This document shows, piece by piece, positions 3-54,860 of a stretch of 64,000 bases of DNA; position 1 is the first letter of the stretch, and every line of letters begins with the position of its first letter. The notes under the pieces were generated by a model. That model saw only the letters and a program-made list of their open reading frames with translations, made no database searches and was not told the DNA's origin. Made by a program: the position numbers and the translations under genes. Source of the DNA: Candidatus Oxydemutatoraceae bacterium (GTDB lineage Bacteria; Pseudomonadota; Gammaproteobacteria; Poriferisulfidales; Oxydemutatoraceae). Where the stretch lies: the NCBI GenBank assembly GCA_965218975.1, contig OZ244717.1, forward strand, positions 338,347 to 402,346. The letters run 5' to 3'.

Positions 3-1043
3 CAGGATAAAGCTAAGGCAGCTTATCCTGACGATCTGCTTGACTGCTTGCAGAAAGATACGACATGGGTGCGCTCTCACGGTTGGAATCGGCCGCCCGG
101 CAGTCGGCGTGTCTTCTATTGGCGACCATCCAATGCCATATCGGTTGGTGCCCCGAAGGCAAGAACAGCAGCTCGACGCCAGCCACGGGTTGAAGCCATG
201 CTTCTATCTCTCACGAATACCAGCCGCAACGACCACGCGTTGCCGCCGGTGACCAGAACTTTGCCACAGGCAGAATTGCTGCATCGCAATCTCGTCGGTA
301 TTGCAGCTAAGATGCTGAAAGCTCAGCAACAAGAAAAGCATGAGGAATTGCTATCACCTGAACTGACCGGGCGCGACGACAACCGCCGACCGCTTCGAGG
401 ACCGCATGAACACGCACACATCAATCCTCTTGATCTCGACGGCGACGGGCACCTGGACCACATTCTCGTCTGGGCGCCGGGGGGACTCGGTGCCGAAGCC
501 CAGGCGGCCATTCGCGCGGCACGGACAACTTACACCAAGGGCAGCGGCGAACCGCTGCGCCTGGCACCGGCCGTAACAGGTGACCTGCAAAATTTGGCTC
601 GGTTGCCTCTGGAATACGGACAACGTGTCATCCGTCTTGTTTCCCGTTCGGTTTCTTCGGATGGCGCGACGGTTTGGGAATCCCTGACGCCCTTCGTTCC
701 TCCAAGGTATCTCAAACTGCGTGGCAAAAACACATTGGAAGGACAAATACACGCCGAGCTTCAATCGAGAGGATATCCTGAACCAGCCTCGGTGCATCCA
801 TTCGCGCCAATGTTCCGGAATCAAAATGATGCCGTGTCGGCAGGTAGCGCTGCCGGCGAACGAAGCAAAACGACCTGGAGCCGTTTCCGCCATTTCAAGA
901 TCATGCGTCAACGCGGACCGACGCCACCGGTCGTATGCTGGTTTGGCATCCGGCTGGAGTTTGATCGTCCGGTCCGAGGTCCCATAGCGCTTGGATACGC
1001 CTCGCATTTTGGTCTAGGGCTGTTCACTGCTGTTGACCCATAA
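3..1043 (+). CDS. Csb2-family (type I-G/I-U Cas5-Cas6-like RAMP) protein, 5'-truncated by the window edge
   Basis: The frame is open from nt 3 to the stop at 1041-1043, with no stop upstream of the listed TTG at 48. The C-terminal half aligns by eye with the C-terminal half of the Csb2 at 5847-8036: HxH..DxDxDG..V.AP; VWES.[ST]P[FY].P.R; G[YL]P.P; RL.F....V.GPI.LG...H.G.GLF.AV. Confidence 0.6.
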   Translation, partial: QDKAKAAYPDDLLDCLQKDTTWVRSHGWNRPPGSRRVFYWRPSNAISVGAPKARTAARRQPRVEAMLLSLTNTSRNDHALPPVTRTLPQAELLHRNLVGIAAKMLKAQQQEKHEELLSPELTGRDDNRRPLRGPHEHAHINPLDLDGDGHLDHILVWAPGGLGAEAQAAIRAARTTYTKGSGEPLRLAPAVTGDLQNLARLPLEYGQRVIRLVSRSVSSDGATVWESLTPFVPPRYLKLRGKNTLEGQIHAELQSRGYPEPASVHPFAPMFRNQNDAVSAGSAAGERSKTTWSRFRHFKIMRQRGPTPPVVCWFGIRLEFDRPVRGPIALGYASHFGLGLFTAVDP

Positions 1044-1086
1044 ACAGCAGCGTTGAATAGCATTTGACGTATATACTTATCGGAAT

Positions 1087-3839
1087 ATGAAAGATAGTTT
1101 TGAGAAAGATTTCAAAGAGCTGACAGGATTTCCTCCGTTCAAATGGCAGAAACGCCTTTTCTATGAGCGTTTCGCCAAAGGTGATATTCCTTCTGCGCTC
1201 GACATCCCGACAGGTCTCGGCAAGACTTCGGTGATGGTAATCTGGTATTTGGCCCGGAAGGCCAAAGCTGCATTGCCCCGGCGTTTAGTTTATGTGGTTG
1301 ATAGACGGGCAGTCGTTGATCAGGCGACAACTGTGGCCGATGAAATTAAAAAGAAATCAAAGGACGATACATTGCGGGTGAGCACGCTGCGCGGTCAACA
1401 TGTGGATAATCGGGAATGGCTTGCGGACCCAGTTGCGCCGGCCATTATTGTCGGCACCGTTGATATGATCGGCTCACGGCTGTTGTTCTCGGGTTACGGC
1501 GTATCACGCAAGATGCGCCCCTATCATGCGGGTCTGCTCGGAGCGGATACGCTCGTCGTGCTTGACGAAGCGCATTTGGTTCCACCGTTTGAAAAACTTC
1601 TCGAAAAGATTGCGAAGATTGTGAACGGAGCCAACGTATTCGGTCCGCGCGAGCAAGAGGACCGAAGAATAACGCCGCCCCTCAAGTTGCTTTCGCTGTC
1701 GGCTACAGGACGTGAAAATGATCAAAGCAGAAAAGGAGGATTCTCGCTTCTTCGCGAAGACTGGGAAGATGAAGTTGTTAAGAAGCGTCTGGAAGCACGA
1801 AAACGACTTACGATCCAAGTGCTCAATGATGCAGAAAAGCTGGCACAGGAGCTGGCCGAGCGGGCATGGAAACTTGGAGAGAAGCCGGCACGTGTGCTCG
1901 TTTATTGCGATCGCAGAAAAGATGCTGTGGAAGTAAAGAATAAAATTGATAAGAAGTTTGAGAAAGGAACCCCCGAACCTGTTTCCGAACTTTTGGTCGG
2001 CGGGCGGCGTGTGTTTGAGCGGCAAACGCTTTCTGACTGGTTGAAAGAGTACGGTTTCTTTGGCGATGCCAAAGGATCGCCAAAGCAGCCGACTTTTCTG
2101 ATTGCGACCTCAGCCGGTGAAGTAGGCGTTGATCTTGATGCGGACCACATGGTGTGCGATTTGGTCGAGTGGGAGCGCATGGTGCAGCGCCTTGGCCGTG
2201 TGAATCGGCGCGGCAACGGGGATGCCCGTATTGAGGTCGTTGCCGCGCCCCGCACGGAAAAGCCCAGCAATCAAAAAAAGGCCAAAGAGTGGGAGAAACT
2301 CTTGGCCTGTTTCCGCAAGCCGCTGGACAGCCTGCGTTGTGTCGGCGTACAGGACGAACGGGACGCGAGCCCGGGTGCGCTCCTGGAACTCAAAGAACGC
2401 GCGGAAAATCATTCGGAACTACGAAACGCGATTGAAGCGGCAACAACACCGGTCCCGTTGCGGCCGGCATTGACTCGTGCCCTCGTTGATGCGTGGTCTA
2501 TGACCTCGTTGGACGAGCATACGGGGCGACCGGACGATATTCAGCCGTGGCTGCGCGGATGGGAGGAAGATCCACAACCGCAAACTACGGTTGTCTGGCG
2601 CAAGTATCTGCCGGTACGCGCAAATGGGACCGAGACGGAGGCAACGAAGAAAGAAATTGAAGCATTTTTTGAAGCAGCGCCTCCGCATACGAGCGAGAAA
2701 CTTGAAATCGAGACTGGTAAAATTGTTGGATGGTTTTCCGAACGTGCCGAGAAACAATTCCAAATAAAGAAAACCGTCGACTCGGCGGCAGAACCAAGCG
2801 AATCCGACGACAACTCCATCGCAGATATTCAACCGTTACTGAAGAAAGATATTTGTGCCTATGTCCTGTCGCCTGCTCACGATTTGCTCTCTATACTTAA
2901 AGGGCATGACTGCGATAATAATACGAAGGTTAAAGAATACATTCTTCCCGGTTCCACGCTCATAGTGGACGCGCGCTTTGGTGGTCTTTCAGAAGAAGGG
3001 ATGCTTGCAGAAGAGGGGATGCTTGATGAGAATGCTAGCGGTCCGCCGCGCACGATTGACGACGATGAAAATTGGCTGCCTGACGATGGAGAGGGCAAGC
3101 CAACCATAAGGTTCCGTGTGCGACACGTTACTGGCGTTACTGAAAGTGACAGCACCGAGTCAAAACCAGACTCAGGTTGGCGGGAGCGGCTGAGGTTTGA
3201 TCTTAAACGTAGCGAGGAAGGCGAAGCTACCAAGTGGCTGCTCGTTGAGAAATGGCGCGACGACTCCGAAACCGGGGACGACCGTTCCATAGGTAGGTTG
3301 CAAGAATTGTGTGAGCATCACGCCTGGACGGAAGCCAAGGCGCGTAAAATAGCCAACGCTTTAGATCTGCCTGACTCCCACATTGAATTGCTAGCCGTTG
3401 CGGCACGACTGCACGATAAAGGAAAGCAACACTCATTGTGGCAACGGGCTGCCAAGGCCCCGCAGGACGGTAAAATTTATGCAAAGACGGATAAACGGAT
3501 GAATGTTAATTTGCTGAATAAATATCGTCATGAATTCGGCTCGCTTCCGTTCGCTAAAGAAGATGCAGATTTTAAGGCTTTGCCTGCTGACTTGCAGGAA
3601 CTTTCTCTGCATTTGATCGCGACACATCACGGTTATGCGCGGCCTGTCATTTCTACTAGCGGTTGCGACGACCCTCCTTCTGTTCTTGAAAAACGCGCCC
3701 GCGATGTTGCACTACGATTCGCCCAAATGCAGAAGCGATGGGGGCCTTGGGGATTGGCCTGGTGGGAATCATTGTTGCGCGCCGCAGACCAACAAGCCTC
3801 ACGCGATAATGATGACCCCAATCGAAAGAAGGATAACTA

Positions 3840-3840
<1 letters not shown>
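1087..3840 (+). CDS. cas3: Cas3 helicase-nuclease, type I-G/I-U architecture (SF2 helicase N-terminal, HD nuclease C-terminal)
   Basis: Walker A DIPTGLGKTS and DEAH box VLDEAH lie in the N-terminal half. The C-terminal HD-domain signature is LHDKGK...RHEFGS...ATHHGYARP. The gene sits at the head of a cas operon, and its stop overlaps the next start by 1 nt. Confidence 0.9.
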
Positions 3841-5814
<1,974 letters not shown>

Positions 5815-5846
5815 CAAGAATCTCATTTAAGTTTCTTGAGTTAACT

Positions 5847-8036
5847 ATGAATCGGACACTTCTCCTCTCGGCTTATTTTCATGACGGTCGCTATCACGGT
5901 GAATGTGGGCATGGCAGCAGCGAGTGGCCTCCAGCACCGGCGAGACTATTTCAGGCGCTGGTTGCCGGTGCCGCAAGAGGTGCCGAATTAGCTGGCAGGG
6001 ACGAAACGGCGCTTGAATGGCTTGAGAAGCTTGGAGCACCGGTGATTGCCGCACCAACCGTTCGCCGGGGCCAACTCTACAAAATCTATGTGCCGAATAA
6101 CGATCTCGACGCGGTCGGCGGTGACCCGAGGAAAATCAACCAGATTCGAGTCGGGAAGTACGTACATCCACATATTTTCGATGCGAGAATACCACTACTC
6201 TTCGTCTGGACATTCAATAGCGGTGCATTCAGCGAAGATCATGCTCAAGCCGTCTGCCAAATCGCGGAGCAACTCTATCAATTGGGGCGAGGCATTGACA
6301 TGGCTTGGGCTTCGGCAGAGCTTCTGGACGCAGGCGAAGTTGAAACACGCCTCAATCGTCATGGCGGTGTTGTGTATCGGCCGAGCAAAGCTGGAGTCGG
6401 CAAGATGTTGTTGTTCTGTCCAAAGAAAGGATCATTTGCGAGCCTCAAAGAGCGATACGATGCGAACAGGAAACGCTTCACCTATATAAGAAAGGGTAGG
6501 GGGTTTCAGCAACTTTTCTCTCAGCCACCTAAGCCACGGTTTGCCAGGGTCGCGTATAACGCTCCACCTCAGCGTTTTCTATTTGAGCTACGTGCAGCTA
6601 CGCACAATGAATCTTTTGTGACATGGCCATCCGCTCGAACGGTTGAGCTCGTTGTAGCTTTGCGGGATAAAGCAGCTGATAAATTGAAAGACAAACTACC
6701 CGAAGAGGCTGGAAAGATTGACCGCGTATTTATAGGCTGTGAGGCAACGGAGGCAGACAAAGCTGCCCGGATACGGATTTTACCGCTTCCTTCTATTGGT
6801 CATATCCATGCGGATCGTGCGATTCGCCGGGTACTGGTTGAAGTACCGCCAAATTGCCCGCTACGCTCGGATGACGTAGCTTGGACATTTTCCGGCCTTC
6901 CTGAGGTTGACCGAACGACCAGAGAAATCCTATGGAATCTTGTGCAGACACAAGAACGGATGATGCTCAAACACTATGGAATTAATAGCAGTAAACAACA
7001 GAGCTTCCGTGTCTGGCATACGGTTACTCCCGCGGCTCTGCCGGTCATGCGGACAGGACGCAGAAATTCCGGAGCCAAACGTGTTGCAAGGGAAGCGAAA
7101 GTAACTCGCGCTGTTATGCAAGCGCTACGTCATGCCGGAGTGACAGAACCGGTAGAGTCTGTTCGCGTGCAACGCGAACCGTTTGATCGCAATGGTTCCC
7201 GGGCAGAAGAGTTTGCGATACCCGAGCGATTTGTCGCACGTGGTCTACATCACGTGGAGATTACTTTTGCGCGAGCCATACGCGGTCCTCTTATTATCGG
7301 GAACGGCCGCTATCTTGGGCTAGGGCTGATGGCGCCGCGAGAGATCGTCGTGCGTGACGCGCTGGCTTTTCCAATAACGCCAAATATCGCTGTCGCCGAT
7401 ACTGCGCTGTTGTTACGTTCGGTCAGGCGCGCATTGATGGCATTGTCGCGAGACGGTGCTAATGGGCATGTCCCTCGACTTTTCTCCGGGCATGAGCCCG
7501 ATGGCGCACCGGCAAAATCCGGTGGACATGATCATATTTTTCTTGCCGCGGATGACGTTGACAGAGACGGACTCATTGAGCGGTTGATTGTTGCTGCGCC
7601 ATGGGTTTGCGACCACACCACCAAGGAAACTCTTAAGGATCGCACTTGCTTTGATAGAGTATCCAGGCAGTTAACCAACGTTCGAGCCGGCAGACTCGGC
7701 ATTCTTACTATTGGTCCCGCACAGACTCTGACGGTCGGCGACCCACTTGTCGGGCCTGCCTGCGTATGGGAAAGTCGTAGCCCTTATCGCCCGACACGCC
7801 ATGCCGGGCGAGGCAAAGATTTAGATGCTGCTGTCGCACGCGACATAATCGCCGAATGCGAACGTCGCGGCTTGCCTAAGCCTGAAGTCGAATTGTTAGA
7901 GCTCAACGCCGGTCCAAACGGCGGCAATCTAACTGCTCGCGCACGTCTTCGTTTTGCTGTAGCAGTTACGAAACCGATCATGCTCGGATGTGACAGCCAC
8001 AGAGGCGGAGGCCTTTTTTCCGCCGTGAGCGGATAA
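5847..8036 (+). CDS. csb2: Csb2 (Cas5-Cas6 fusion RAMP of type I-G/I-U)
   Basis: The N-terminus MNRTLLLSAYFHDGRYHG....EWPPAPARLFQALVAGA matches my recollection of the Csb2 (GSU0054) family N-terminal signature. Glycine-rich RAMP loops are GNGRYLGLGLMAP and HRGGGLFSAV. The listed ORF starts at 5811. Confidence 0.8.
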   Translation: MNRTLLLSAYFHDGRYHGECGHGSSEWPPAPARLFQALVAGAARGAELAGRDETALEWLEKLGAPVIAAPTVRRGQLYKIYVPNNDLDAVGGDPRKINQIRVGKYVHPHIFDARIPLLFVWTFNSGAFSEDHAQAVCQIAEQLYQLGRGIDMAWASAELLDAGEVETRLNRHGGVVYRPSKAGVGKMLLFCPKKGSFASLKERYDANRKRFTYIRKGRGFQQLFSQPPKPRFARVAYNAPPQRFLFELRAATHNESFVTWPSARTVELVVALRDKAADKLKDKLPEEAGKIDRVFIGCEATEADKAARIRILPLPSIGHIHADRAIRRVLVEVPPNCPLRSDDVAWTFSGLPEVDRTTREILWNLVQTQERMMLKHYGINSSKQQSFRVWHTVTPAALPVMRTGRRNSGAKRVAREAKVTRAVMQALRHAGVTEPVESVRVQREPFDRNGSRAEEFAIPERFVARGLHHVEITFARAIRGPLIIGNGRYLGLGLMAPREIVVRDALAFPITPNIAVADTALLLRSVRRALMALSRDGANGHVPRLFSGHEPDGAPAKSGGHDHIFLAADDVDRDGLIERLIVAAPWVCDHTTKETLKDRTCFDRVSRQLTNVRAGRLGILTIGPAQTLTVGDPLVGPACVWESRSPYRPTRHAGRGKDLDAAVARDIIAECERRGLPKPEVELLELNAGPNGGNLTARARLRFAVAVTKPIMLGCDSHRGGGLFSAVSG

Positions 8037-8521
8037 GCGCATAGAACTGTTGCCGAGACGAGCGTGTGAACACCTGCTATGGTGGCGCCCTAATTTGATT
8101 TTCCCTTTACAGGTTCCAAAACCCCTTTTGGCTATAATAGATACTATTATTAACGTATTAACGGCATCCTCGCGAGGACGATTATGGTCGGAGCTATCAA
8201 GCTCGGATCAGTTGGTTATGGACGCAACCAAGTAAACCGGAGTGTTTTTGTCGTTTGCCACCGAAACAGACTGATCATTGGACAACAATCGGAAAATCTG
8301 GTGAAAAAATATTGATTTACCAACAGGATATTGTGAAATATATACTAATTAGATTAGAAGAGGGGAATTTCGGCAATTCTTATCTAGTATCGGCTCGGGC
8401 GAAAATGATTCAGAGCGATGTCTTTTACGGAGTAATGAAAAGCCTTGCGAGAAAGAAAAAAGGTTGCCGGTCACGCTATCGTGATTGGTCGAAATAAAAC
8501 CCGTCGATTGCGCTTAGCGCA

Positions 8522-10243
8522 ATGCTCATGCCAAGACAAGTGATCCAACAGGAATTACCCCTGCCTTTTCCAAAGCTTGGCGCAGACATGCCATTATTGC
8601 CGGCGCGTATGGTGAATGAGTACGAATATTGCCCGCGTCTCGCTTATCTGGAGTGGGTACAAAAAGAATGGGCAGATTCGTCGGATACCGTCGAGGGCAA
8701 GTATCGGCATCGTCGCGTCGATAGATTCGGGGGCAATTTGCCGGACCCGGAGCAGGTGGCGGCAGACGAAACATTTCACGCGCGTTCGATTACTTTGTCC
8801 TCGAATCAACTCGGGGTTATTGCAAAACTTGATTTGGTGGAAGGGGAAGGCAATGCCGTTATCCCTGTAGATTATAAAAAGGGGAAACGCCCCCATGTGG
8901 CACGAGGTGCATACGATCCCGAACGTGTTCAACTATGCCTGCAGGGCATGTTGTTGGAAGAGCACGGTTATGAATGTGCGGAGGGGATCTTGTATTACGC
9001 GGAATCGAAGGAACGGATACGTGTGATCTTTGATAAAGAATTGAAAAACAAAACCCTGTCCGCAGTCTCTAGCCTGCGCCTCATGGCTGCCGGCAAAAAA
9101 ATGCCGCCGCCTTTGGAAGACAGCCCTAAATGCCCGCGTTGTTCTTTGGTTGGCATCTGCCTTCCGGATGAAGTTAACTTTTTGAAGTATATGAAAACAC
9201 CGCCGAGACCTCTAAGTGTCGCGCAGGACGACAGCCTTCCGGTATATGTGCAGGCCAACCGCGCCTCTGTCAAAAAGGCAGGAGAGACTCTGGAAATCCT
9301 GGTTGAGGATAAGTTAGTCAAGAAAGCCCGTTTGCCGGAGGTTTCGCAAGTAGTCTTAATGGGCAATGTATATCTCACCACTCCCGCTTTGTGCGAACTC
9401 ATGCGCCGGGAAATTCCGATCACTTGGCATTCCTTTGGCGGCTGGTTTCTGGGGCATACCATTGGCACCGGACACAAAAATGTCGAGCTGCGCACGGCAC
9501 AGTTCAAGGCCAGTTTTGATGAACAGGTGTGTCTGACTTTGTCTAAAGGGTTCGTGCGCGCCAAGATTCAGAATTGTCGCATCATGATGCGGAGAAACTG
9601 GAAGCTGAAAGATAAGCCTGCCAGACTGTACCGTGCATTTCACCAAGATGCTAACCGGTCTGACCGTGTGTCTTCAATAACCGAATTATTGGGTGTGGAG
9701 GGTAATGCGGCAGCGCGATATTTCGGTGAATTTCAAAATTTGATCAAGCGGGAAAAGGACACGGATCAATTTATTTTTGAGTTTGAGAAGCGCAACCGTC
9801 GTCCGCCGGCAGACCCAGTCAATGCTTTATTGTCATACGCTTATAGCCTTTTAACACGTACCTGGACGGTTACCCTTACTGCGGTAGGGTTTGATGCATA
9901 CCGTGGATTTTTTCATCAGCCCCGCTATGGCCGTCCGGCGCTGGCGCTGGATATGATGGAACCCTTTCGTCCTTTGGTTGCCGATTCCACAGTGTTGATG
10001 GCAATTAACAACGGTGAAGTTCGTCCGGGCGATTTCATATCTGCGGCTGGTAGCTTCAATCTGACGCCTGCAGGAAGAAAACGGTTTATCGGAACATTTG
10101 AACGGCGACTGAGTCAGGAAATTATTCACCCGCTGTTCGGCTATAAAATCAGTTACCGCCGCCTGTTTGAGGTGCAAGCCAGACTGTTGGCTCGATTCCT
10201 TCTTGGCGAGTTGATTGAGTTTCCCCAATTTACCACGCGGTGA
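8522..10243 (+). CDS. cas4/cas1: Cas4-Cas1 fusion protein
   Basis: The N-terminal Cas4 part has EYCPRLAYLEW and the C-terminal cysteine cluster CPRCSLVGIC (RecB-like nuclease with an Fe-S cluster). The following ~340 aa are a Cas1-like integrase part (NALLSYAYSLL..., EPFRPLVAD). This fusion is typical of type I-U/I-G. Confidence 0.9.
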   Translation: MLMPRQVIQQELPLPFPKLGADMPLLPARMVNEYEYCPRLAYLEWVQKEWADSSDTVEGKYRHRRVDRFGGNLPDPEQVAADETFHARSITLSSNQLGVIAKLDLVEGEGNAVIPVDYKKGKRPHVARGAYDPERVQLCLQGMLLEEHGYECAEGILYYAESKERIRVIFDKELKNKTLSAVSSLRLMAAGKKMPPPLEDSPKCPRCSLVGICLPDEVNFLKYMKTPPRPLSVAQDDSLPVYVQANRASVKKAGETLEILVEDKLVKKARLPEVSQVVLMGNVYLTTPALCELMRREIPITWHSFGGWFLGHTIGTGHKNVELRTAQFKASFDEQVCLTLSKGFVRAKIQNCRIMMRRNWKLKDKPARLYRAFHQDANRSDRVSSITELLGVEGNAAARYFGEFQNLIKREKDTDQFIFEFEKRNRRPPADPVNALLSYAYSLLTRTWTVTLTAVGFDAYRGFFHQPRYGRPALALDMMEPFRPLVADSTVLMAINNGEVRPGDFISAAGSFNLTPAGRKRFIGTFERRLSQEIIHPLFGYKISYRRLFEVQARLLARFLLGELIEFPQFTTR

Positions 10244-10247
10244 GACA

Positions 10248-10538
10248 TTGGAAGAACATCTTTATGTCATTGCTTATGACATTTCCGATCAAGCAAGGGG
10301 GCGCCTGATATTCAAACTGCTGCATGGTTATGGGGAATGGTTGCAAATGTCTGTCTTTCAATGCCGGCTATCCCGTCGTCGTCATGCGGAATTGATTGCC
10401 ATGCTGGACGAAATTATCCACCACACGGAAGATCATGTTATGCTGATGGACCTGGGATTAGCGGATTCGGTTAAACCGAAAATTGTAAGTCTAGGCAAAG
10501 GTTTTCAACCGGTGGAAAGGGAACCGATTATTGTCTGA
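10248..10538 (+). CDS. cas2: Cas2
   Basis: LYVIAYDISD....R......L..YGEWLQMSVFQCRL is the Cas2 beta1/ferredoxin-fold signature. The likely TTG start at 10248 lies just after the cas1 stop (10241-10243); the listed ORF starts at 10215. Confidence 0.85.
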   Translation: MEEHLYVIAYDISDQARGRLIFKLLHGYGEWLQMSVFQCRLSRRRHAELIAMLDEIIHHTEDHVMLMDLGLADSVKPKIVSLGKGFQPVEREPIIV

Positions 10539-10749
10539 TGTTCTTCCGTTCTTCATAACTCCCGCGAGAGCCTAGGTGATGAACGTTTGTCCGGGCAGTG
10601 CTCGCATAAAAATGTTCTTTGACAATCAGTATCTTACAGGTGACATCTTGCAAAAAAAATACAAGAAACACGACAGTGTTATGATGCATTTAGACCTCTC
10701 GAAATGGCTTTCTATAATCTTTGCCAAACAATAGGTTATGGGATGTGCT
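10539..10749 (+). promoter_or_regulatory. CRISPR leader with a candidate promoter (TTAGAC 10690-10695, 17 nt spacer, TATAAT 10713-10718)
   Basis: An AT-rich 211 bp non-coding stretch lies between cas2 and the first repeat. A perfect -10 hexamer sits 32 bp upstream of repeat 1, with a weak -35 at 17 bp spacing. Confidence 0.5.
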
Positions 10750-13700
10750 GTATTCCGTAGCTATATGCTACGGCCTCATTGAAGCATCTCCATTTTATAC
10801 GCGGCAGAATTACCGCGTGATGTATTCCGTAGCTATATGCTACGGCCTCATTGAAGCGATATGGCCACATTCGGCGATGAGGACGATGACATCAGTATTC
10901 CGTAGCTATATGCTACGGCCTCATTGAAGCTAGAAGTAGTGGTTTTATACCTTGATAGAAGTTTTGTTGTATTCCGTAGCTATATGCTACGGCCTCATTG
11001 AAGCCGACACTGTATGTGATCGCGAGCTACTCTGTGACACGTATTCCGTAGCTATATGCTACGGCCTCATTGAAGCGAGAATAATGAAAAGTAAGATGAA
11101 AACACCTGCTTATGTATTCCGTAGCTATATGCTACGGCCTCATTGAAGCTTTTGCAGCAAGCTGCTAAAATTATGATAACAGATTGTATTCCGTAGCTAT
11201 ATGCTACGGCCTCATTGAAGCTTCTAAGTTCGGCTTCCATCATTTGTTGAGCACCTGGTATTCCGTAGCTATATGCTACGGCCTCATTGAAGCATCTACA
11301 AGTCGCTCGCATCTCCGCACGTCATCGGCGTATTCCGTAGCTATATGCTACGGCCTCATTGAAGCAGCACCGGTAGTTTCTGTTGAAGAACTTGCTATGA
11401 AGTATTCCGTAGCTATATGCTACGGCCTCATTGAAGCCAATGCCAAAGACCTAATGCACCATGTCATTAGATGTATTCCGTAGCTATATGCTACGGCCTC
11501 ATTGAAGCATCGACCAGCCGCTCGCATTTCTGCACGTCATCGGCGTATTCCGTAGCTATATGCTACGGCCTCATTGAAGCGAGATAACCGTCAGTAATTC
11601 CGCAAAGAATTTTGTGGTATTCCGTAGCTATATGCTACGGCCTCATTGAAGCGATTACTTGGGCACAAGAAACGAAAGCAGCATATCGTATTCCGTAGCT
11701 ATATGCTACGGCCTCATTGAAGCGAATTTTCAAGCGTTTGCGTGTACCAGATATGCCGGGTATTCCGTAGCTATATGCTACGGCCTCATTGAAGCCGTAC
11801 AGGCAGTCACGCATCGGAGATCGGCATCGCGGTATTCCGTAGCTATATGCTACGGCCTCATTGAAGCGAGAGGTTAGCTGCACCTGCCGACTGGAAAGAA
11901 TCAAGTATTCCGTAGCTATATGCTACGGCCTCATTGAAGCTCGAGTTATCTTCGCGTTAGTCGGGTCAAAAAATAGTATTCCGTAGCTATATGCTACGGC
12001 CTCATTGAAGCCTGCAATTCAACCTGCAAACCGTTTTTTACAATGCGGTATTCCGTAGCTATATGCTACGGCCTCATTGAAGCTGCCGCAAGTGTCGGGT
12101 TGCCGAAGTCGTTAAATGCGTATTCCGTAGCTATATGCTACGGCCTCATTGAAGCTTTACCCCGCTCCACAATGGCCATGATTGCTGCGTAGTATTCCGT
12201 AGCTATATGCTACGGCCTCATTGAAGCTGCGGGTCGCCGACGCAAGAAAAAAGGTTGCATTAGGTATTCCGTAGCTATATGCTACGGCCTCATTGAAGCT
12301 TGGCGGGACGCAACTAAGTCGACCGAAGGGTTAGGTATTCCGTAGCTATATGCTACGGCCTCATTGAAGCTGGGCTGTACCCTGACGACTCCTGCGAATT
12401 TGATGATGTATTCCGTAGCTATATGCTACGGCCTCATTGAAGCGCGGTAAACGCTAACTCCATGTTCAGCTAATCGGCTGCGTATTCCGTAGCTATATGC
12501 TACGGCCTCATTGAAGCCTCACTGCCTTCGTTTCCTTCCAGCATAATTACAGCGTATTCCGTAGCTATATGCTACGGCCTCATTGAAGCTATATTTTTTT
12601 TCTACATCTTCCATGTTTTATCTCCGTATTCCGTAGCTATATGCTACGGCCTCATTGAAGCCCACGATTATCTTTGTGTTGCGAATGATTGCCGAGGTAT
12701 TCCGTAGCTATATGCTACGGCCTCATTGAAGCCGGTGTAAAATCATCCATCAAAATAACGGTCTTGCTGTATTCCGTAGCTATATGCTACGGCCTCATTG
12801 AAGCAAGAAATTGAACATCGGCTACAGCTATGATACCTGACGTATTCCGTAGCTATATGCTACGGCCTCATTGAAGCTGTTTTGTAGTAGTGCATTGTTA
12901 GCAGTTCGTTTGTGTATTCCGTAGCTATATGCTACGGCCTCATTGAAGCTTCTCCAATAACTGTTGGGTCAGGCACAAGGCCTGCGTATTCCGTAGCTAT
13001 ATGCTACGGCCTCATTGAAGCTAGTAAGATCATTAGTTCTGCTGTTTTGAGATTCCGGTATTCCGTAGCTATATGCTACGGCCTCATTGAAGCTGCAAGA
13101 GCTAATTGAAGGTGGAAAAAATGGCAGGTGTATTCCGTAGCTATATGCTACGGCCTCATTGAAGCAACGTTACACAGAATTAGTTGTATAGACTTATTAG
13201 GGTATTCCGTAGCTATATGCTACGGCCTCATTGAAGCCCACGATTATCTTTGTGTTGCGAATGATTGCCGAGGTATTCCGTAGCTATATGCTACGGCCTC
13301 ATTGAAGCCGGTGTAAAATCATCCATCAAAATAACGGTCTTGCTGTATTCCGTAGCTATATGCTACGGCCTCATTGAAGCTCATTGACTCGGGATATGGA
13401 CGTCCTCGATTCTTTAGTATTCCGTAGCTATATGCTACGGCCTCATTGAAGCTATGCAAAAGATACCGAAGAATACAATAATTTGAAGTATTCCGTAGCT
13501 ATATGCTACGGCCTCATTGAAGCTTTGAAGATCAATATGTATTCAATCGTTAAGTTGGGGTATTCCGTAGCTATATGCTACGGCCTCATTGAAGCACATT
13601 GGATAGTGCTGCGATTGAGCCTTTTATGAGAGGTATTCCGTAGCTATATGCTACGGCCTCATTGAAGCCCATTCTCCAAAGCTGCCGCGAGAAACCCGTT

Positions 13701-15981
13701 CCCGCGTATTCCGTAGCTATATGCTACGGCCTCATTGAAGCTCTACGGTGATCTGACCGAGCACTTCCAACTCAGCGTATTCCGTAGCTATATGCTACGG
13801 CCTCATTGAAGCTACGCAGCGGTACGGCGTCTCGGAGCCGCACACTTGGGTATTCCGTAGCTATATGCTACGGCCTCATTGAAGCGAGGCAGCTTTGTCC
13901 ATTTGCTGGAGCCGCACGCGGTATTCCGTAGCTATATGCTACGGCCTCATTGAAGCCGGTGTAAAATCATCCATCAAAATAACGGTCTTGCTGTATTCCG
14001 TAGCTATATGCTACGGCCTCATTGAAGCTCATTGACTCGGGATATGGACGTCCTCGATTCTTTAGTATTCCGTAGCTATATGCTACGGCCTCATTGAAGC
14101 TATGCAAAAGATACCGAAGAATACAATAATTTGAAGTATTCCGTAGCTATATGCTACGGCCTCATTGAAGCTTTGAAGATCAATATGTATTCAATCGTTA
14201 AGTTGGGGTATTCCGTAGCTATATGCTACGGCCTCATTGAAGCACATTGGATAGTGCTGCGATTGAGCCTTTTATGAGAGGTATTCCGTAGCTATATGCT
14301 ACGGCCTCATTGAAGCCCATTCTCCAAAGCTGCCGCGAGAAACCCGTTCCCGCGTATTCCGTAGCTATATGCTACGGCCTCATTGAAGCCTCACTGCCTT
14401 CGTTTCCTTCCAGCATAATTACAGCGTATTCCGTAGCTATATGCTACGGCCTCATTGAAGCTATATTTTTTTTCTACATCTTCCATGTTTTATCTCCGTA
14501 TTCCGTAGCTATATGCTACGGCCTCATTGAAGCGCGGATGATAATTTGTGCAATTCCCTCATTTGCCTTAAGTATTCCGTAGCTATATGCTACGGCCTCA
14601 TTGAAGCCCGGAAGTTAAAGTCCCCATGTCCGCAGTTAAAGCGGAGTATTCCGTAGCTATATGCTACGGCCTCATTGAAGCGGCTCGGCAATTTCAGTCA
14701 TCAAATCTTTATAACTCGTATTCCGTAGCTATATGCTACGGCCTCATTGAAGCATGATGGTGTTTTAGCACCGTCATGAATGATGTTAAGTATTCCGTAG
14801 CTATATGCTACGGCCTCATTGAAGCTTGTTGCAGTATTTATTTTTATCTCGCTTGTCATGTTGTATTCCGTAGCTATATGCTACGGCCTCATTGAAGCTG
14901 GTAAGCACATTCGACTCAACCATGGCTTTCCTCACGTATTCCGTAGCTATATGCTACGGCCTCATTGAAGCTGTGTGGCGGAATGTCCCTTTTGGGTATA
15001 GTTTATCCGTATTCCGTAGCTATATGCTACGGCCTCATTGAAGCAGCGAAGAAGCCGATGAGGCAGGCGTATATATAGTGTATTCCGTAGCTATATGCTA
15101 CGGCCTCATTGAAGCGACCGCTGTAACTACGACCTGTCACATTACATAATGTATTCCGTAGCTATATGCTACGGCCTCATTGAAGCGGTGCTTTACTCAC
15201 GCATTCAAGGAATCCGGCGCATGTATTCCGTAGCTATATGCTACGGCCTCATTGAAGCAAATCTCCGTTGTTGTGGTGCCGGCAAGAGCGCCGGGTATTC
15301 CGTAGCTATATGCTACGGCCTCATTGAAGCAACCTTTGCATCTGGGGATAAAAAACAGTACTGGAATGTATTCCGTAGCTATATGCTACGGCCTTATTGA
15401 AGCATTGCAAATCATCCATATACGGATAAGGAAACAAAGTATTCCGTAGCTATATGCTACGGCCTCATTGAAGCTTTGGCTTCTATTGTTCTGCGCGGTT
15501 CGGGTACGCATGTATTCCGTAGCTATATGCTACGGCCTCATTGAAGCCCAACTATTTGGTCAACACCTATCAACCCAGAAATAAGTATTCCGTAGCTATA
15601 TGCTACGGCCTCATTGAAGCGACTCAACGCTAATGACGCATACGGCAAAGCCGGATGTATTCCGTAGCTATATGCTACGGCCTCATTGAAGCGGCGTTGG
15701 GTAAATCTCAGCTAGTGCGTAAAGTGCACGTATTCCGTAGCTATATGCTACGGCCTCATTGAAGCGATTTTCTAAGTCAGGAAGCTCCAACCCGCAACAT
15801 AGGTATTCCGTAGCTATATGCTACGGCCTCATTGAAGCAAGCCGCTGTTATATCGAGTGGTCAAGGAGTGAGTGGTATTCCGTAGCTATATGCTACGGCC
15901 TCATTGAAGCTTTTCGTTATTGGGACGCAAGTCATTCCAGGAGACGTATTCCGTAGCTATATGCTACGGCCTCATTGAAGC
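10750..15981 (+). CRISPR. CRISPR array: 73 copies of the 36 bp repeat GTATTCCGTAGCTATATGCTACGGCCTCATTGAAGC and 72 spacers of 35-38 bp
   Basis: I located every repeat start by hand: first at 10750, last at 15946, with periods of 71-74 bp. The repeat has an internal hairpin, CCGTAGC-TATAT-GCTACGG, and ends in ATTGAAGC. One variant repeat at 15368-15403 has C>T at 15395. The leader and cas2 lie at the 5' side. Confidence 0.97.
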
Positions 15982-16010
15982 GCGATTAAATGTTTTTCGT
16001 AAATTTATGC

Positions 16011-16901
16011 TCAACGTTCACCACTGAATAAAGCCTCTTGAATGTCGCCTTGAATACAATTCTTCACGCCATTCGCATTTCTTTGTTTTGTATTTTTAAC
16101 AGGTTTCCTAAGTGGTTGCCCATTATGTTCAAGATACCCAAGAACTCTCCGCAAGCCAATTTCAACATGCTTTTGTGATCTTTCAATACCGATGCTTTTT
16201 CTACCTAATGTTCGTGCAACTGCATTAGTAGTAAATGCTCCTGCAAACGGGTCAAGAATTATATCTTCTTTATTTGAACTTGCTTGAACAATTCTTTGAA
16301 GAAGCGTTTCAGGTTTTTGGGATGGATGATCTTCATATTCATCCATCTTGTAACGTACTCGAGGAAAATACCAAACATTTCCTGGAACTTTTTTCGTATT
16401 ATAAATCGTTGGAATCTTTTTTCTGTAGTCAATAAGTTTACGTTTAGCCCCCGTTTTAGCTTCTATAGCAATTGTGTCAGCGTTAAAAGTGTAATTATCA
16501 AGATCTTTCACACAGAAAAGAATCGGTTCATACATGGAACCATAATATTTTTTCGCTTGCACCCCCGAACTATCATATGACCAAATAATTCTGCTAAGTA
16601 TGTTTATTCTCTTTCTCAATATAATATCTATGTAGGGCATAGCTTGGGTGCTTGTCATCACATACATAGAGCCTTGAGATGAAAGTTTATCAATACAAAG
16701 AGTTAACCATTTCTCACACCATTCAGCATACGCTTCATCAGAAGGCCATTTGTCATCAAATCCATCAAAGCGTTTCCCAATGTTGTAAGGGGGATCAGCA
16801 AATATCAAATCAATTGAATTATTAGCAATTTTATCGCGTAATACTTCTATTGCATCGCCTTGGTAAATGGCATGATTTTTTATTTCGTATTTTTTAATCA
16901 T
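16011..16901 (-). CDS. DNA methyltransferase, beta-class N6-adenine/N4-cytosine type (DPPY)
   Basis: Motif IV, IFADPPYNIG, lies near the N-terminus. Motif I, LDPFAGAFTTNAVA, lies near the C-terminus, giving the beta-class order. The start is 4 nt downstream of the IS1595 transposase stop. Confidence 0.8.
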   Translation of the reverse strand: MIKKYEIKNHAIYQGDAIEVLRDKIANNSIDLIFADPPYNIGKRFDGFDDKWPSDEAYAEWCEKWLTLCIDKLSSQGSMYVMTSTQAMPYIDIILRKRINILSRIIWSYDSSGVQAKKYYGSMYEPILFCVKDLDNYTFNADTIAIEAKTGAKRKLIDYRKKIPTIYNTKKVPGNVWYFPRVRYKMDEYEDHPSQKPETLLQRIVQASSNKEDIILDPFAGAFTTNAVARTLGRKSIGIERSQKHVEIGLRRVLGYLEHNGQPLRKPVKNTKQRNANGVKNCIQGDIQEALFSGER

Positions 16902-16905
16902 TAAA

Positions 16906-17826
16906 TCAAGCTACCAATTGTTCATAAGTAATCGTCTTCCCAACCATGGCCTTAAAGAGATCATCAAGTCTGTCCTGTGTATCACGTTTCACATTGCCTT
17001 CATTAAGTCTGAATGTAAACTCATTTACATATTGTTGACAATGCTTCTTGCTCCAATTGTGGTAAACACCATTGAAGCCACGTTTAATCACTGACCATAC
17101 AGATTCAACTCCATTAGTATGCGCCATCCCGTTAACATATTCTCTTGCTGAATGTTTTACGCTTTCATGCTGATAATAGTCGCCTCCAATATCTTTATAA
17201 CCCTTGTGGTCATCCGTATAAATGGTGGTACCCACTTCAATGTTAGCAAGAACAGCACTATGAATAGTAGCCTTGTCTTCACCTTCAACTGGCATAGCTT
17301 TTACACGGCCTTCCCGTTCTCTCATACCCAGCACAGCCTGCTTTCCCACAGTACCGCGTCCGGCCTTGAGTTTCTTATGAGAGTGTTTATTCTTTTCAGC
17401 CCTACCAATATAGGTGGCGTCCATTTCCACTTCACCACTCAAGGCTTCAAGATTGTTGCCGCAAGCTAAACGTAGCCTATGCAGCATGTACCAGGCTGTC
17501 GGATAGCTAACGTCCAGTTCCTTGCTTAATTGCATGGCGGAAATACCTTTACGGGCGGTCATAAGCAGATACGCTGCAAATAGCCACATACGGGCATCAC
17601 GCACCCTGTTATGTTCAAGTGGGGTTTCTGTGAAAGCATTGAAATATCCGCGACAATCGCCGCACCAATAACCTTTCTTGTAGTTCTTTTGCTTGGTGAT
17701 TCTGCCGGTACAGCCGCATTTGACACATACAGGCTTAGTTCCCCATCTAAGCTGCTCAAGCTTCGGCAAAAATGTTTTCAAGGGCAATTTCATAATTGGA
17801 CTCTTTTGGCGATAGACCCCGTTCAA
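16906..17826 (-). mobile_element. IS1595-family transposase gene (intact)
   Basis: The N-terminal zinc ribbon is CVKCGC....WCGDCRGYF. The ISXO2-like DDE core is TIYTDDHKGYKDI...HESVKHSAREYVNGMAHTNGVESVWSVIKRG..GVYHNWSKKHCQQYVNEF.FR. The probable start is MKLPLKTF at 17793. I could not define terminal inverted repeats confidently. Confidence 0.8.
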
Positions 17827-18193
17827 TTGATTTATTGCGGGTCACGCCCCGTGCCTTTAGGCAGGCAACTTTTAGGAGCCACTCATCAACATCCGGAATC
17901 CATTGTTCCTTTGTATCCGAAGGCAGCAGAAAAAGTCTTTGCTTCCCACCTTCGAGAAAGGGACTTTGTAAATTGTCACGTATATTTTTTAAAAGTATAT
18001 CGCTTGCTACAGAATCATCATAAATTTTATGGCACCAATTCCAAATCGGACCAAGTTTATCGGCCTTATCAACCACTTCCCCTGTTTCATCAAGGAGGAT
18101 ACTAACAGGAATTAGCTTCTTGTCGAACGCCTTCTTAGGATCAACAAGAGATTTACCGATTTTGGAATTTCGGTAACGTAATTCTTCCTTCAT
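17756..18193 (-). CDS. Hypothetical protein (145 aa); its 3' end runs into the IS1595 upstream region and is possibly IS-truncated
   Basis: The ORF lies on the same strand as the upstream operon, 105 nt after the 300 aa gene. No recognisable motifs were seen. The last ~13-25 codons overlap the transposase start region. Confidence 0.4.
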   Translation of the reverse strand: MKEELRYRNSKIGKSLVDPKKAFDKKLIPVSILLDETGEVVDKADKLGPIWNWCHKIYDDSVASDILLKNIRDNLQSPFLEGGKQRLFLLPSDTKEQWIPDVDEWLLKVACLKARGVTRNKSIERGLSPKESNYEIALENIFAEA

Positions 18194-18298
18194 CTACCAA
18201 TTTAATCCAATCATGAATTGAGCGTTCTTTATAGATTGTTTCCATAGTCTGTTGTCCTCCTTATCGGAAATACAACCTCTGCATCGACAATTGCAGCT

Positions 18299-19201
18299 TC
18301 AATTCTTTCCATCTTCAGCGGCTTTGACTGCATCAACAACGTCATCAGCAAGTCGACGAAGTTCAACATATTCAAGCACTGCTAGTTCTCGAGAACCGCC
18401 GATAAAGCAAATCTCCCGGCATACATCTAGCACTTTGCCGGCAGGCGGCAGTTTGCCGCTACTTTCATTGTCGTCGGGAAGAAATCTTGTGAGACTCGCC
18501 GCCACGGCTTCTTGGACCGAAGCTATTCCAAAAACGGGATTCCTGGATACCATTGCAGATACAAACCATTCCCAGTGGGCTTTTGTTTGCCGAAGTATTT
18601 TTCCTATCCGGTCTTTCGCTATCCCGGATTGTATCTCGGCTCGCCGAACTAGCCGCTCCCGCCACCAAGCTCTCGCAAACGGACAATCAACAAGAACACT
18701 TTTGTTCCCCCGAACATGAGGCAATCCACCCAGTTGGCGTAGAACCGAACGCACGCAGTTGTCCGTTTGCTCTTTTCTTTTAGGGTTCTCGTTGGCCATT
18801 ATCCTGTCAATACGCTCTGCGCCTGTTTGTGATGCGATCCCATTACTTGCGAGGAAACTCGGTTCGATTCGACCTTCCCGAACGTGGCACATAGTGACAT
18901 GAGTCCAAAATAATGTGCTTGAGGCAATCGACAAAGAAAGGTTATTCCAGAGATCGTACATCTTGGATTCAGTGCTAGCTGGGGGATCCTTGAATTGCGC
19001 CTCGCTCATCTTGACCTGATACAGATCGGGATCAATCAAACCAGAAACCGGAATCTGCTCCATAGTTTTGATGAATGCTTCCCCGTCTCTGATCTCTTGA
19101 AGAAATGCCTCTTGTTTTTCGCTACCTTTCTCGCTAAGCAAATTCGCCCGGAATTTGGCCCACTCTTTGTCGTCAAGACATTTCCAATCAAGTTCACTCA
19201 T
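18299..19201 (-). CDS. Hypothetical protein (300 aa), operon partner of the sulfur-modification module
   Basis: An 8 nt overlap with the upstream gene indicates translational coupling. I cannot assign a family. The conserved-looking core is FWTHVTMCHVREGRI ... RQLGGLPHVRGNKSVLVDCPFARAWW. Confidence 0.6.
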   Translation of the reverse strand: MSELDWKCLDDKEWAKFRANLLSEKGSEKQEAFLQEIRDGEAFIKTMEQIPVSGLIDPDLYQVKMSEAQFKDPPASTESKMYDLWNNLSLSIASSTLFWTHVTMCHVREGRIEPSFLASNGIASQTGAERIDRIMANENPKRKEQTDNCVRSVLRQLGGLPHVRGNKSVLVDCPFARAWWRERLVRRAEIQSGIAKDRIGKILRQTKAHWEWFVSAMVSRNPVFGIASVQEAVAASLTRFLPDDNESSGKLPPAGKVLDVCREICFIGGSRELAVLEYVELRRLADDVVDAVKAAEDGKN

Positions 19202-26560: not shown

Positions 26561-27040
26561 GTTTTGTGTTTGGTGGCAGATTGTCGGCGGATTGTGCCGG
26601 ATTATTGGTGGATTGTTGGTAGGTTGTGCCGGATTATTAGCAAAGTGCATGTCGTCCATGACGCGACTGGGTTCTGTCAACAAGCCCCAGCCCCGACATC
26701 CTTGTCGGGTCGTTCGCCGCTGAAAACCGTTCGGTTTTCCGGGCGCGGCTTACCCATGACGCGACTGGGTTCTGTCAACAAGCCCCAGCCCCGACATCCT
26801 TGTCGGGTCGTTCGCCGCTGAAAACCGATCGGTTTTCCGGGCGCGGCTTACCCATGACGAGACTGGGTTCTGTCAACAAGCCCCAGCCCCGACATCCCTG
26901 TCGGGTCGTTCGCCGCTGAAAACCGTTCGGTTTTCCGGGCGCGTCTCACCCGACAACGGACAGAAAGCACCGATCCGAATGTTGCTGCCGAATGCTTCCC
27001 CGGAAGCCCTTCAAGAATCCCATTTAGGGTGGCATCGTAC
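26561..27040 (+). repeat. Mosaic intergenic repeat cluster, copy 1: G/T-rich head, three ~97 bp units, conserved tail
   Basis: The head (26561-26657) has GGATTGT/GGATTAT motifs every 9-12 bp. Units start at 26658, 26755 and 26853. Each contains the hairpins CCCGACA-TCCT-TGTCGGG and GAAAACCG-TT-CGGTTTTC. The tail AAAGCACCGATCCGAATGTT...CCCATTTAGGGTGGCATCGTAC runs 26964-27040. Confidence 0.9.
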
Positions 27041-27166
27041 ATTCTTGACAAGCCCGCCGCTTTCCCCTAACCTGAGCTTAAGTTACGAGGCGCAGGCCTT
27101 ATTCTTTACTCGCCCGCGGGGAGGATCCTCGCGGGGACCTTCCAGCGGTAACAACAGGAGACTATT

Positions 27167-27376
27167 ATGGAAATTACTGCTGAGAAATTTGAGCAGGAGC
27201 TTCAAAAGCTTGAACAGAGGCTTGAGCGAAAGTTTGATACGAAGCTTGATACGAAGTTTGATAAGCTCGAAGCCAAACTCGACTCGGTGAAGACTTGGTT
27301 TGTCGGTTTAATGGTCACTACCGTTTTAGTCGTGACCGCGTTGATGACAACATTCGTCAACATTAACATGAACTAA
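27167..27376 (+). CDS. Small coiled-coil protein with a C-terminal transmembrane anchor (69 aa; DUF1640-like pattern by recollection)
   Basis: An AGGAG RBS lies 7-8 nt upstream. A heptad-like region, EQELQKLEQRLERKFDTKLDTKFDKLEAKLDS, is followed by the hydrophobic helix WFVGLMVTTVLVVTALMTTFV. The gene is flanked on both sides by the mosaic repeat clusters. Confidence 0.6.
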   Translation: MEITAEKFEQELQKLEQRLERKFDTKLDTKFDKLEAKLDSVKTWFVGLMVTTVLVVTALMTTFVNINMN

Positions 27377-27487
27377 CCCGGGCATCACCGCCTATTCTTA
27401 AAACTTGGTTTCGCGTCTGCTCGCGAAATCCTACTCTAAATTGATGATACAAACCATGGGTTTTTATCCTTAGCCTGCCTATCAGCA

Positions 27488-27851
27488 TCGTTCGCCGCTG
27501 AAAACCGTTCGGTTTTCCGGGCGCGGCTCACCTGTTTTGTGTTTGGTGGTAGATTGTCGGCGGATTGTGCCGGGTTGTTGGTGGATTGTTGGTAGGTTGT
27601 GCCGGATTATTAGCAAAGTGCATGTCGTCCATGACGAGACTTCGTGCTGTTAATGAACCCCAGCCCCGACATCCTTGTCGGGTCGTTCGCCGCCCGCTAA
27701 AAAAGGTGGCACCGTTCGGTTTTCCGGGGCGCGGCTCACCCATGACGAGACTTGGTTCTGTCAATGAGCCCCAGCCCCGACATCCCTGTCGGGTCGTTCG
27801 CCGCTGAAAACCCCGCTGAAAACCGTTCAGTTTTCCGGGCGCAGCTCACCC
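27488..27851 (+). repeat. Mosaic intergenic repeat cluster, copy 2: partial unit, head, two units, no tail
   Basis: The family and orientation match 26561-27040. The head sequence TGTTTTGTGTTTGGTGGTAGATTGTCGGCGGATTGTGCCGGGTTGTTGG... is followed by CATGACGAGACTT...CCCCGACATCCTTGTCGGG...TTCGGTTTTCCGGG units. Confidence 0.9.
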
Positions 27852-28044
27852 TGCGGCGTCAGGGTGGGCCTTATCCGCACGTAGCGGTCAACCGTATATA
27901 GCGTCAGGCATGCGAGCCGAAATCGGACAGCGCCGGCAACCGATATATCCTCGCATCCCGGTAACATTGCCTGCGCGGACCGCGCAGCTCATTGGGTTAC
28001 AATACCCCGTAGCTAAAAATAAAAAAGGTCTGACTGACAACTAC

Positions 28045-30701: not shown

Positions 30702-31295
30702 TCAGCAATTCTTAAAGTTCTTCTTAATACATTCGCGAGCAAGGTCTTGCGCTTTAGAGATATCGGCAGAGGTCATTTTTTTTGCCATCGTCTCTCTTAA
30801 TTTTCTTCCGTCCTCAGCCCCGTTTGCGGAAGCGATGTTCGCCCACATATGGGCATAAACATTATCCTTTATTAACCCCCGACCTAAAGCATACATCAAA
30901 CCCAGATTATTTTGCGCGGACGCATGTCTCTGTCCGGCGGCGAGCCTGTACCATTTCACTGCCTCGCGATAATCTTGAGGAACACCGTCTCCGTTGCGAT
31001 ACATCACACCCAGACTGTGCTGCGCGTCCGCATGTCCCTGTTCGGCGGCGAGCCTGTACCATTTCACTGCTTGCCGACCGTCTTGAGGAACACCGTGTCC
31101 GTTGTCATACATCACACCCAGATTGTACTGCGCGGACGCATGTCCCTGTTCGGCGAGAGGCATCCACTTTTGCAGGGCGGTCGCAAAGTCTCGTTTTAGA
31201 GCGACATCCAACCCTTTCTGAAAATCAGCAGAATAGGCAAACGACCCGAATAAGAGTGCGAACAGTAAAATAGAAATGATAGACAGAGTTCTCAT
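30702..31295 (-). CDS. Sel1-repeat (TPR-like) protein with signal peptide
   Basis: The N-terminal hydrophobic leader is MRTLSIISILLFALLFGSFAYSA. It is followed by Sel1 units of the form AQ.NLG.MY.NG.GVPQD...AVKWYRLAAEQGHA.AQ. Confidence 0.85.
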   Translation of the reverse strand: MRTLSIISILLFALLFGSFAYSADFQKGLDVALKRDFATALQKWMPLAEQGHASAQYNLGVMYDNGHGVPQDGRQAVKWYRLAAEQGHADAQHSLGVMYRNGDGVPQDYREAVKWYRLAAGQRHASAQNNLGLMYALGRGLIKDNVYAHMWANIASANGAEDGRKLRETMAKKMTSADISKAQDLARECIKKNFKNC

Positions 31296-54761: not shown

Positions 54762-54786
54762 AAGGTTGAGATATAGCGCATAAAAT

Positions 54787-54824: not shown

Positions 54825-54860
54825 TCAGTGTATGCTGCTTTAAGAGAGACCTGCGCAAGT

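Follow-up and report, generated by a model that had tools for sequence, protein, structure and literature searches.

A 64,000-nucleotide (nt) stretch of contig OZ244717.1 from a Candidatus Oxydemutatoraceae bacterium (the window; contig positions 338,347 to 402,346) holds a type I-G CRISPR-Cas locus that is preceded, at the left edge of the stretch, by the final part of a second gene for the effector subunit Csb2. The results presented here make it probable that this left-edge csb2 ends a second type I-G module, of the Cas8g1/Csx17 type, that it abuts a complete locus of the Cas8g2/Csb3 type, and that the two modules have their own Cascades and Cas3g enzymes and depend on one CRISPR array and one set of adaptation genes. 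Coordinates are window positions unless a related locus is named, and the cas genes of the window, their motifs, the array and the intergenic features are all on the plus strand.

The left-edge open reading frame (ORF; 3-1043) enters at the window boundary, reaches its stop at 1043 and encodes 346 amino acids (aa). Its translation matched the NCBIfam model of type I-G Csb2 (TIGR02165, cut-off 45 bits) with 78.1 bits over model positions 220-491 of 492, and Pfam PF09609 was not reported for it. The ORF is 100% identical to residues 224-569 of a 569-aa database protein (P0001), which at full length scored 174.6 bits over model positions 4-491. It follows that the window boundary interrupts an intact gene, and the possibility that the ORF is a truncated remnant could be ruled out. 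P0001 consists of an N-terminal Cas5-like RAMP (repeat-associated mysterious protein) domain fused to a C-terminal Cas6-like domain, and the window contains the 3' two-thirds of the gene, encoding the linker and the Cas6-like domain. All residues invariant among 63 homologues are kept in P0001, and the GC content of the gene is in line with that of the neighbouring cas genes. With its length, P0001 falls in the class of two-domain Csb2 proteins of 546-588 aa, as opposed to the ~720-750 aa of Csb3-type Csb2, and the fragment shares 46-70% identity with the Csb2 of Csx17 modules and 25% with Csb3-type Csb2. Judged by these identities, the left-edge Csb2 belongs to the Csx17-associated and not the Csb3-associated lineage. 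Sequence searches against solved structures returned nothing for either Csb2 of the window; structure models back the predicted Cas5-like and Cas6-like folds in both.

Three motif blocks mark the Cas6-like part of the left-edge protein. The first, HEHAHINPLDLDGDGHLDHILVWAP (405-479), contains H358, H360, H362, D367, D371, D375 and H376 (P0001 numbering), which are invariant in 63 family members, and is followed by VWESLTP (672-692). The third, GPIALGYASHFGLGLFTAV (978-1034), forms a glycine-rich loop in which G549, P550, G554, Y555, S557, H558 and G562 are invariant in the 63 homologues. H558 sits in the segment SHFGLGLF of this loop and pairs, in profile alignment, with H718 of the long Csb2 encoded downstream. 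A catalytic histidine near the C-terminus has been shown experimentally in the Csb2 of Thioalkalivibrio (H503; PMC9638904) and in the 545-aa Csb2 of B. animalis (H520; bioRxiv 2022.08.19.504415), and H558 is by its position the candidate catalytic histidine of the left-edge Csb2.

The first-pass annotation had described this ORF as sharing C-terminal Csb2 signatures with the protein encoded at 5847-8036, and all three blocks were indeed located in both proteins, in the downstream one as HDHIFLAADDVDRDGLIERLIVAAP (7527-7601), VWESRSP (7764-7784) and KPIMLGCDSHRGGGLFSAV (7971-8027), within residues 561-727 of 729. Like the left-edge fragment, the downstream protein scored well above the TIGR02165 cut-off (360.5 bits), and pairwise BLASTP aligned the two with an E value of 6e-8 and 25% identity over ~215 columns, a similarity clearly greater than chance would give. 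This level of identity bears out the view that the left-edge Csb2 is strongly diverged, and thus an old paralogue and no recent duplicate. What did not hold was the idea that the shared blocks close the canonical Csb2 core: BLASTP, hhalign and TIGR02165 all place the downstream copies beyond that core, in an extra third domain. When the two family profiles were aligned with each other (hhalign; probability 99.6%, E 1.5e-24), it was this third domain that paired with the C-terminal domain of Csx17-type Csb2.

The downstream csb2 is thus a long form comprising a Cas5-like domain and two Cas6-like domains. Its start at 5847 was confirmed by a 729-aa database protein (P0391, 100% identical), which, like P0001, is encoded on a contig of 2,081,000 bp; the longest ORF begins at 5811. 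Residues 4-497 span the 492 positions of TIGR02165 end to end (317 bits), and the last 232 residues alone match positions 240-491 (55.4 bits). The third, duplicated Cas6-like domain (7338-8036) holds the three shared blocks, including H718. The middle domain has a glycine-rich loop of its own, GPLIIGNGRYLGLGLM (7284-7331), in which Tyr489 occupies the position held by histidine in the other loops: in the register derived from the ends of the hidden Markov model (HMM) alignments, Tyr489 of GNGRYLGLGLM aligns with H558 (SHFGLGLF) and with H718 of the third domain (SHRGGGLF). R488 and Y489 are invariant among 62 close homologues of the long Csb2. H718 would accordingly be the catalytic residue and the middle domain non-catalytic, and the long Csb2 may divide its labour between a histidine-less Cas6-like domain that binds RNA or serves assembly and a second, duplicated one that is catalytic. 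At E <= 1e-30 the long form has 551 cluster representatives; of the best 150, most are 700-760 aa long and align over their full length, and a fusion specific to this locus could therefore be ruled out. The form is not mentioned in two experimental papers on type I-G (PMC9638904; bioRxiv 2022.08.19.504415). For annotation, this means that the standard Csb2 model spans two of the three domains of a common protein.

The locus to which the long csb2 belongs is complete, as the first-pass annotation had proposed, and NCBIfam assigns every gene. It opens with a cas3g of 917 codons (1087-3840; TIGR02621, 619 bits), whose product carries a C-terminal HD domain (residues 746-885) and is 64-65% identical to the Cas3g of the Csb3-type loci L018 and L019 and 46% identical to the second Cas3g of locus L011. 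The gene for the large subunit, cas8g2 (csb3; 3840-4760), matched TIGR04106 with 125.3 bits against a cut-off of 125, and is followed by csb1/cas7g (TIGR02570, 139.6 bits; PF09617, 142.7 bits), for which the longest-ORF coordinates are 4714-5814 and the true start may lie downstream. Beyond the long csb2 come a cas4g-cas1g fusion (8522-10243; NF049935, 817 bits) and cas2 (10215-10538; TIGR01573, 35.5 bits; PF09827, 55.1 bits). From 1087 to 15981 the window thus contains cas3g, cas8g2, cas7g, csb2, cas4-cas1, cas2 and the array in the standard order of the Cas8g2 variant, with all genes above the NCBIfam cut-offs. The spacer between the left-edge csb2 and cas3g is 43 nt long (1044-1086), and reading and scanning it revealed no terminator-like hairpin and no promoter-like site. 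A promoter-like site was found in the leader just 5' of the first repeat (10689-10718; TTTAGA-18-TATAAT, 10 of 12 matches), a consensus match only.

The nature of the left-edge module is indicated by its relatives. Seventeen loci (L001-L017) encode a Csb2 that is 46-70% identical to the left-edge fragment over the part within the window; L001-L011 derive from a scan of species-representative genomes, and L013 is a single distant locus from a metagenome scan. In all 17, csb1 adjoins the left-edge-type csb2, and wherever the flanks suffice csx17/cas8g1 is present as well (16 of 16 loci; 564 bits to TIGR04113 in L001), as is a long cas3g (14 of 14; TIGR02621, 736 bits). Bacterial loci have the genes in the order cas3g-csx17-csb1-csb2, and two loci from Nitrosopumilaceae in the order csb1-csb2-cas3g-csx17. 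A Csx17-type type I-G module very likely lies upstream of the window, where the gene context of these relatives places it, and for annotation the second csb2 signals a second module and not a duplicated gene. The Csx17-type module, recognized by 47-67% Csb2 identity to P0001, occurs in metagenome-assembled genomes (MAGs) labelled Nitrospirales, Gammaproteobacteria, Vicinamibacterales, Ca. Wallbacteria, Polyangiales and Pseudomonadales and, with the other gene order, in the two Nitrosopumilaceae archaea, a distribution that suggests wide horizontal spread. Several of the MAGs among L001-L011 appear to be sponge-associated.

The first-pass annotation had envisaged, as one of two alternatives, an upstream effector module, for example of the Csx17 type, that shares the single cas3, adaptation genes and array of the window. 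The context of the 17 relatives supports the type of module; the single cas3 fares less well, as Csx17-type modules carry a Cas3g of their own. These enzymes are 1134-1231 aa long and only ~25-31% identical to the 917-aa Cas3g of the window over the helicase region. BLASTP detected no similarity between Cas8g1 and Cas8g2, and the Cas7g proteins of the two variants are barely similar (E 0.2 and 0.065). It is Cas8g through which Cas3g attaches to Cascade (PMC9638904), and a separate Cas3g would on this ground be expected for each module. The presence of a dedicated Cas3g in Csx17 modules, its attachment to Cas8g and the divergence of Cas8g1 from Cas8g2 and between the Cas7g proteins together make the sharing of one cas3 unlikely.

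Further observations concern the Cas3g of the Csx17-type modules. In those closest to the left-edge Csb2, the protein has a Fic/DOC domain at its C-terminus (PF02661, 34-42 bits), as seen in L001 (3200-6706), L004 (3235-6756), L009 (3182-6694), L011 (601-4119) and L012 (3183-6680), and also in L014-L017. In L007, L010 and L013, which are more distant, Cas3g matches only to about residue 917-941, and these enzymes seem to be without the Fic domain. A full-text literature search found no paper on a Fic domain in type I-G Cas3. In the Csb3-type locus L018, a minus-strand stretch just after csb2 (7682-8020) shares 49% identity with residues 909-1018 of the long Cas3g; in that protein these residues join the core to the Fic domain. 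The stretch may be related to the 'Cas3-extension family' of NCBIfam (NF049934).

The array (10750-15981) consists of 73 copies of the 36-nt repeat GTATTCCGTAGCTATATGCTACGGCCTCATTGAAGC, all 73 of which match Rfam CRISPR-DR16. The repeat is predicted to fold into a lead of 5 nt, a stem of 7 base pairs (bp), a loop of 5 nt and a tail of 12 nt. The Thioalkalivibrio repeat of the Cas8g1 type (GTCATCCGCGGCATTTAGCCGCGGCCTCATTGAAGC) has the same predicted arrangement, and the last 14 nt of the two are identical. Its end, CGGCCTCATTGAAGC, is also the end of the repeats of the Csx17-only loci L001 (CATTCCGAGGCCATACGGCCTCGGCCTCATTGAAGC), L012 (AATTCCGAGGCATATTTGCCTCGGCCTCATTGAAGC) and L015 (GGGTATCCGGGGCACGCGTGCCCCGGCCTCATTGAAGC in the recovered form, which may begin with some bases of the flank) and of L018 (CATTTCCGGAGCATCCGTGCTCCGGCCTCATTGAAGC), a Csb3-only locus, and L019 has six copies of the same terminal motif right behind its long csb2. 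Thioalkalivibrio Csb2 cuts 4 nt past the stem to leave the 8-nt handle ATTGAAGC (PMC9638904). Since both variants use one repeat class, either Csb2 should accept the array of the window. The canonical Csx17-type order is csb2, cas4/cas1, cas2 and array, as in L015, and in the M. innocens locus csb2 is likewise followed by cas4/cas1, cas2 and the array (PMC10333696). In the window, the Csb3-type effector cassette fills the interval between the left-edge csb2 and cas4-cas1, and an adaptation set and array shared by both modules is the simplest reading of this arrangement, and a plausible one. The affinities of Cas4-Cas1 were considered as a means of assigning the adaptation set to one module, and were non-discriminating (38-63% identity to Csx17-type loci, 51-61% to L018).

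The combined observations suggest a model of the locus. ORF 3-1043 would be the end of a csb2 encoding the Cas5-Cas6 fusion subunit and pre-crRNA (precursor CRISPR RNA) endonuclease of a Cas8g1/Csx17-variant module, expected to read, upstream, cas3g (in the long form, probably with the C-terminal Fic domain), csx17, csb1 and csb2. After 43 nt follows the complete Cas8g2/Csb3-variant locus, from cas3g, csb3, csb1 and the long csb2 to cas4/cas1, cas2 and the 73-repeat array. The two modules would be old paralogues whose subunits have become too diverged to exchange, and this divergence implies that each most likely assembles its own Cascade and uses its own Cas3g. Both Csb2 proteins retain a Cas6-like C-terminal domain with a conserved histidine in a glycine-rich loop. 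As both keep this histidine and the repeat class is common to both variants, sharing of crRNAs is probable, and the two Cascades probably process and load crRNAs from one array that is filled by a single Cas4-Cas1/Cas2 set. A stronger proposal would make this a selected, co-transcribed dual-effector locus, in which a single adaptation module and array supply two Cascades, of the Cas8g1 and the Cas8g2 type, that are not interchangeable and that each have a Cas3g to themselves; we put it forward tentatively, as a possibility that we lean against.

A few points weigh against the two-module model. The csb1, csx17 and cas3g genes of this genome are placed upstream by the gene context of relatives, and H558 and H718 are likened to the experimentally tested histidines by their position near the C-terminus. 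The tandem arrangement is also not general: about ten other Csx17-type loci with adequate downstream flank, as well as the Csb3-type locus L019, are without it, and the adjacency of the two modules may be incidental. The arrangement does occur in L011, from a gammaproteobacterial sponge MAG, where a Csx17 module (601-9065) precedes a second set of cas3g, csb3, csb1 and long csb2 (12087-18980), with small ORFs interpreted as HicA/HicB-like between them. The L011 genes are 32-62% identical to those of the window, so that the tandem is either old and retained or has arisen more than once. L018, considered as a further tandem locus, holds a Csb3-type system only; with ~840 nt of upstream sequence it is uninformative on the tandem. 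Two fragments found in L001 immediately 5' of its Csx17-type cas3g may be the debris of a former tandem or of a rearrangement: a duplicate of part of the C-terminal region of the long Cas3g (2282-2680, 52% identity), and a 60-residue fragment (2998-3177) that is 67% identical to the N-terminus of the Csb3-type Cas3g of the window.

The alternative that survives best is that two independent type I-G systems lie side by side, the Csx17 module relying on adaptation genes and an array of its own, located beyond it on the upstream side, and making no use of the array in the window. Such an upstream set is conceivable, given that cas4-cas1 precedes the Csx17 module in L009 and L017 (on the opposite strand) and in L007 (on the same strand), and the rarity of the tandem among the loci examined is in keeping with a chance juxtaposition. 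However, the repeat classes of the two variants are indistinguishable in the part recognized by Csb2, and cross-use would be expected even with two arrays. The short spacer, free of any terminator-like hairpin, and the recurrence of the tandem in L011 despite the low protein identity also speak against full independence, which we regard as unlikely.

Alternatively, the upstream module could be a decaying remnant in which csb2 is intact, csx17, csb1 or cas3g is disrupted, and only the Csb3-type system works. Signs of rearrangement are seen in related loci, in the debris of L001 and in the cas4-cas1 of L018, which is interrupted by inserted genes, and an IS1595 transposase gene is found right after the array of the window. 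The 569-aa ORF is nevertheless complete, with all family-invariant residues kept, which is unexpected for a gene free of selection, and its GC content matches that of the neighbouring cas genes; decay is accordingly an explanation to which we attach little weight. The proposal that a stand-alone Cas5-Cas6-like RAMP was recruited as an accessory crRNA-processing protein for the Csb3-type system, also raised by the first-pass annotation, draws on the ability of isolated Csb2 to cleave repeats without other subunits (PMC9638904; bioRxiv 2022.08.19.504415), but is highly improbable, as none of the 17 related loci has this lineage of Csb2 without csb1 and csx17, as far as the flanks reach, and P0001 retains the Cas5-like domain, needed only for complex assembly.

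Beyond the last repeat (15981), genes for an N6/N4 DNA methylase (16011-16901) and the IS1595-family transposase (16906-17826) occupy the minus strand from 16011 to 17826, and methylases (27910-29661 and 50089-51810) and a ResIII helicase (44845-47433) are encoded further downstream. The region flanking the array looks like a defence-island neighbourhood. The window contains other repeats in addition to the array. Units of ~67-111 nt with internal hairpins, in tandem and dispersed copies, are found in 26656-27851 and 51931-55119, and one unit contains CCCCAGCCCCGACATCCTTGTCGGGTCGTTCGCCGCTGAAAACCGTTCGGTTTTCCGGGCG; the hairpin repeats of these two regions had no Rfam match at the gathering threshold. 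A 369-nt tandem repeat (4.9 copies, 88% matches; 52832-54632) lies inside an ORF of 671 codons (52746-54761), and 108-nt tandem repeats (up to 5.5 copies; 30890-32234) overlap a minus-strand ORF (31457-32374). The ORFs over these two tandem repeats probably encode repeat-containing proteins.

Among the type I subtypes, I-G has received the least study, and work on it has so far dealt with each variant singly. The locus described here is a natural test case for whether two variants share crRNAs with their Cascades and Cas3 enzymes kept apart, and for the benefit of this to the host, such as a broader range of protospacer-adjacent motifs (PAMs) or robustness to anti-CRISPRs. If the dual-effector proposal is true, the arrangement could provide two modes of PAM or target recognition, or resistance to anti-CRISPRs directed against one large subunit, and a second output, not nucleolytic in nature, may come from the Fic domain of the Cas8g1-type Cas3g. 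Current understanding is not overturned by these findings.

Of the characterized systems, the Thioalkalivibrio sulfidiphilus Cascade of the Cas8g1/Csx17 variant (PMC9638904) resembles the lineage of the left-edge protein in being part of a csx17/csb1/csb2 module with its own cas3g, in having a two-domain Csb2 (Cas5-like and Cas6-like) with a histidine near the C-terminus, which in the left-edge lineage is conserved in the glycine-rich loop, and in its 36-nt repeat, which has the same stem and loop lengths (7 bp and 5 nt) and agrees in all of the last 14 nt at the 3' end. The M. innocens locus (cas3-cas8u1-cas7-csb2-cas1-cas2; PMC10333696) represents the same variant. Unlike in these Cas8g1-variant loci, the left-edge csb2 of the window is followed by a whole second effector cassette and not by its own cas4-cas1, cas2 and array. 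The closest relatives of the left-edge module, moreover, have a Fic-ended Cas3g that exceeds the 854 positions of the TIGR02621 model by ~250-300 aa. For the Cas8g2/Csb3 variant, known from the Geobacter GSU0051-0054 model families and the B. animalis Cascade/I-G (bioRxiv 2022.08.19.504415), the segment 1087-15981 has the same components in the standard order. The difference lies in Csb2, which is a 545-aa protein in B. animalis and the 729-aa three-domain form in the window, with a second Cas6-like domain and a tyrosine in the middle one.

The use of one array and adaptation set by several effector modules is known from other settings, such as type III systems that use type I arrays, or Pyrococcus furiosus, where three effectors rely on one Cas6. 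The likeness is that one repeat class and one adaptation module would serve more than one effector complex, sharing that in the window is deduced from the repeat class and the gene arrangement. The difference is that the effectors of the window are variants of a single subtype, each probably provided with a separate processing nuclease and a separate Cas3. Both protein families and both variants involved are already known, and the locus is an uncommon composite of them, not a new kind of system.

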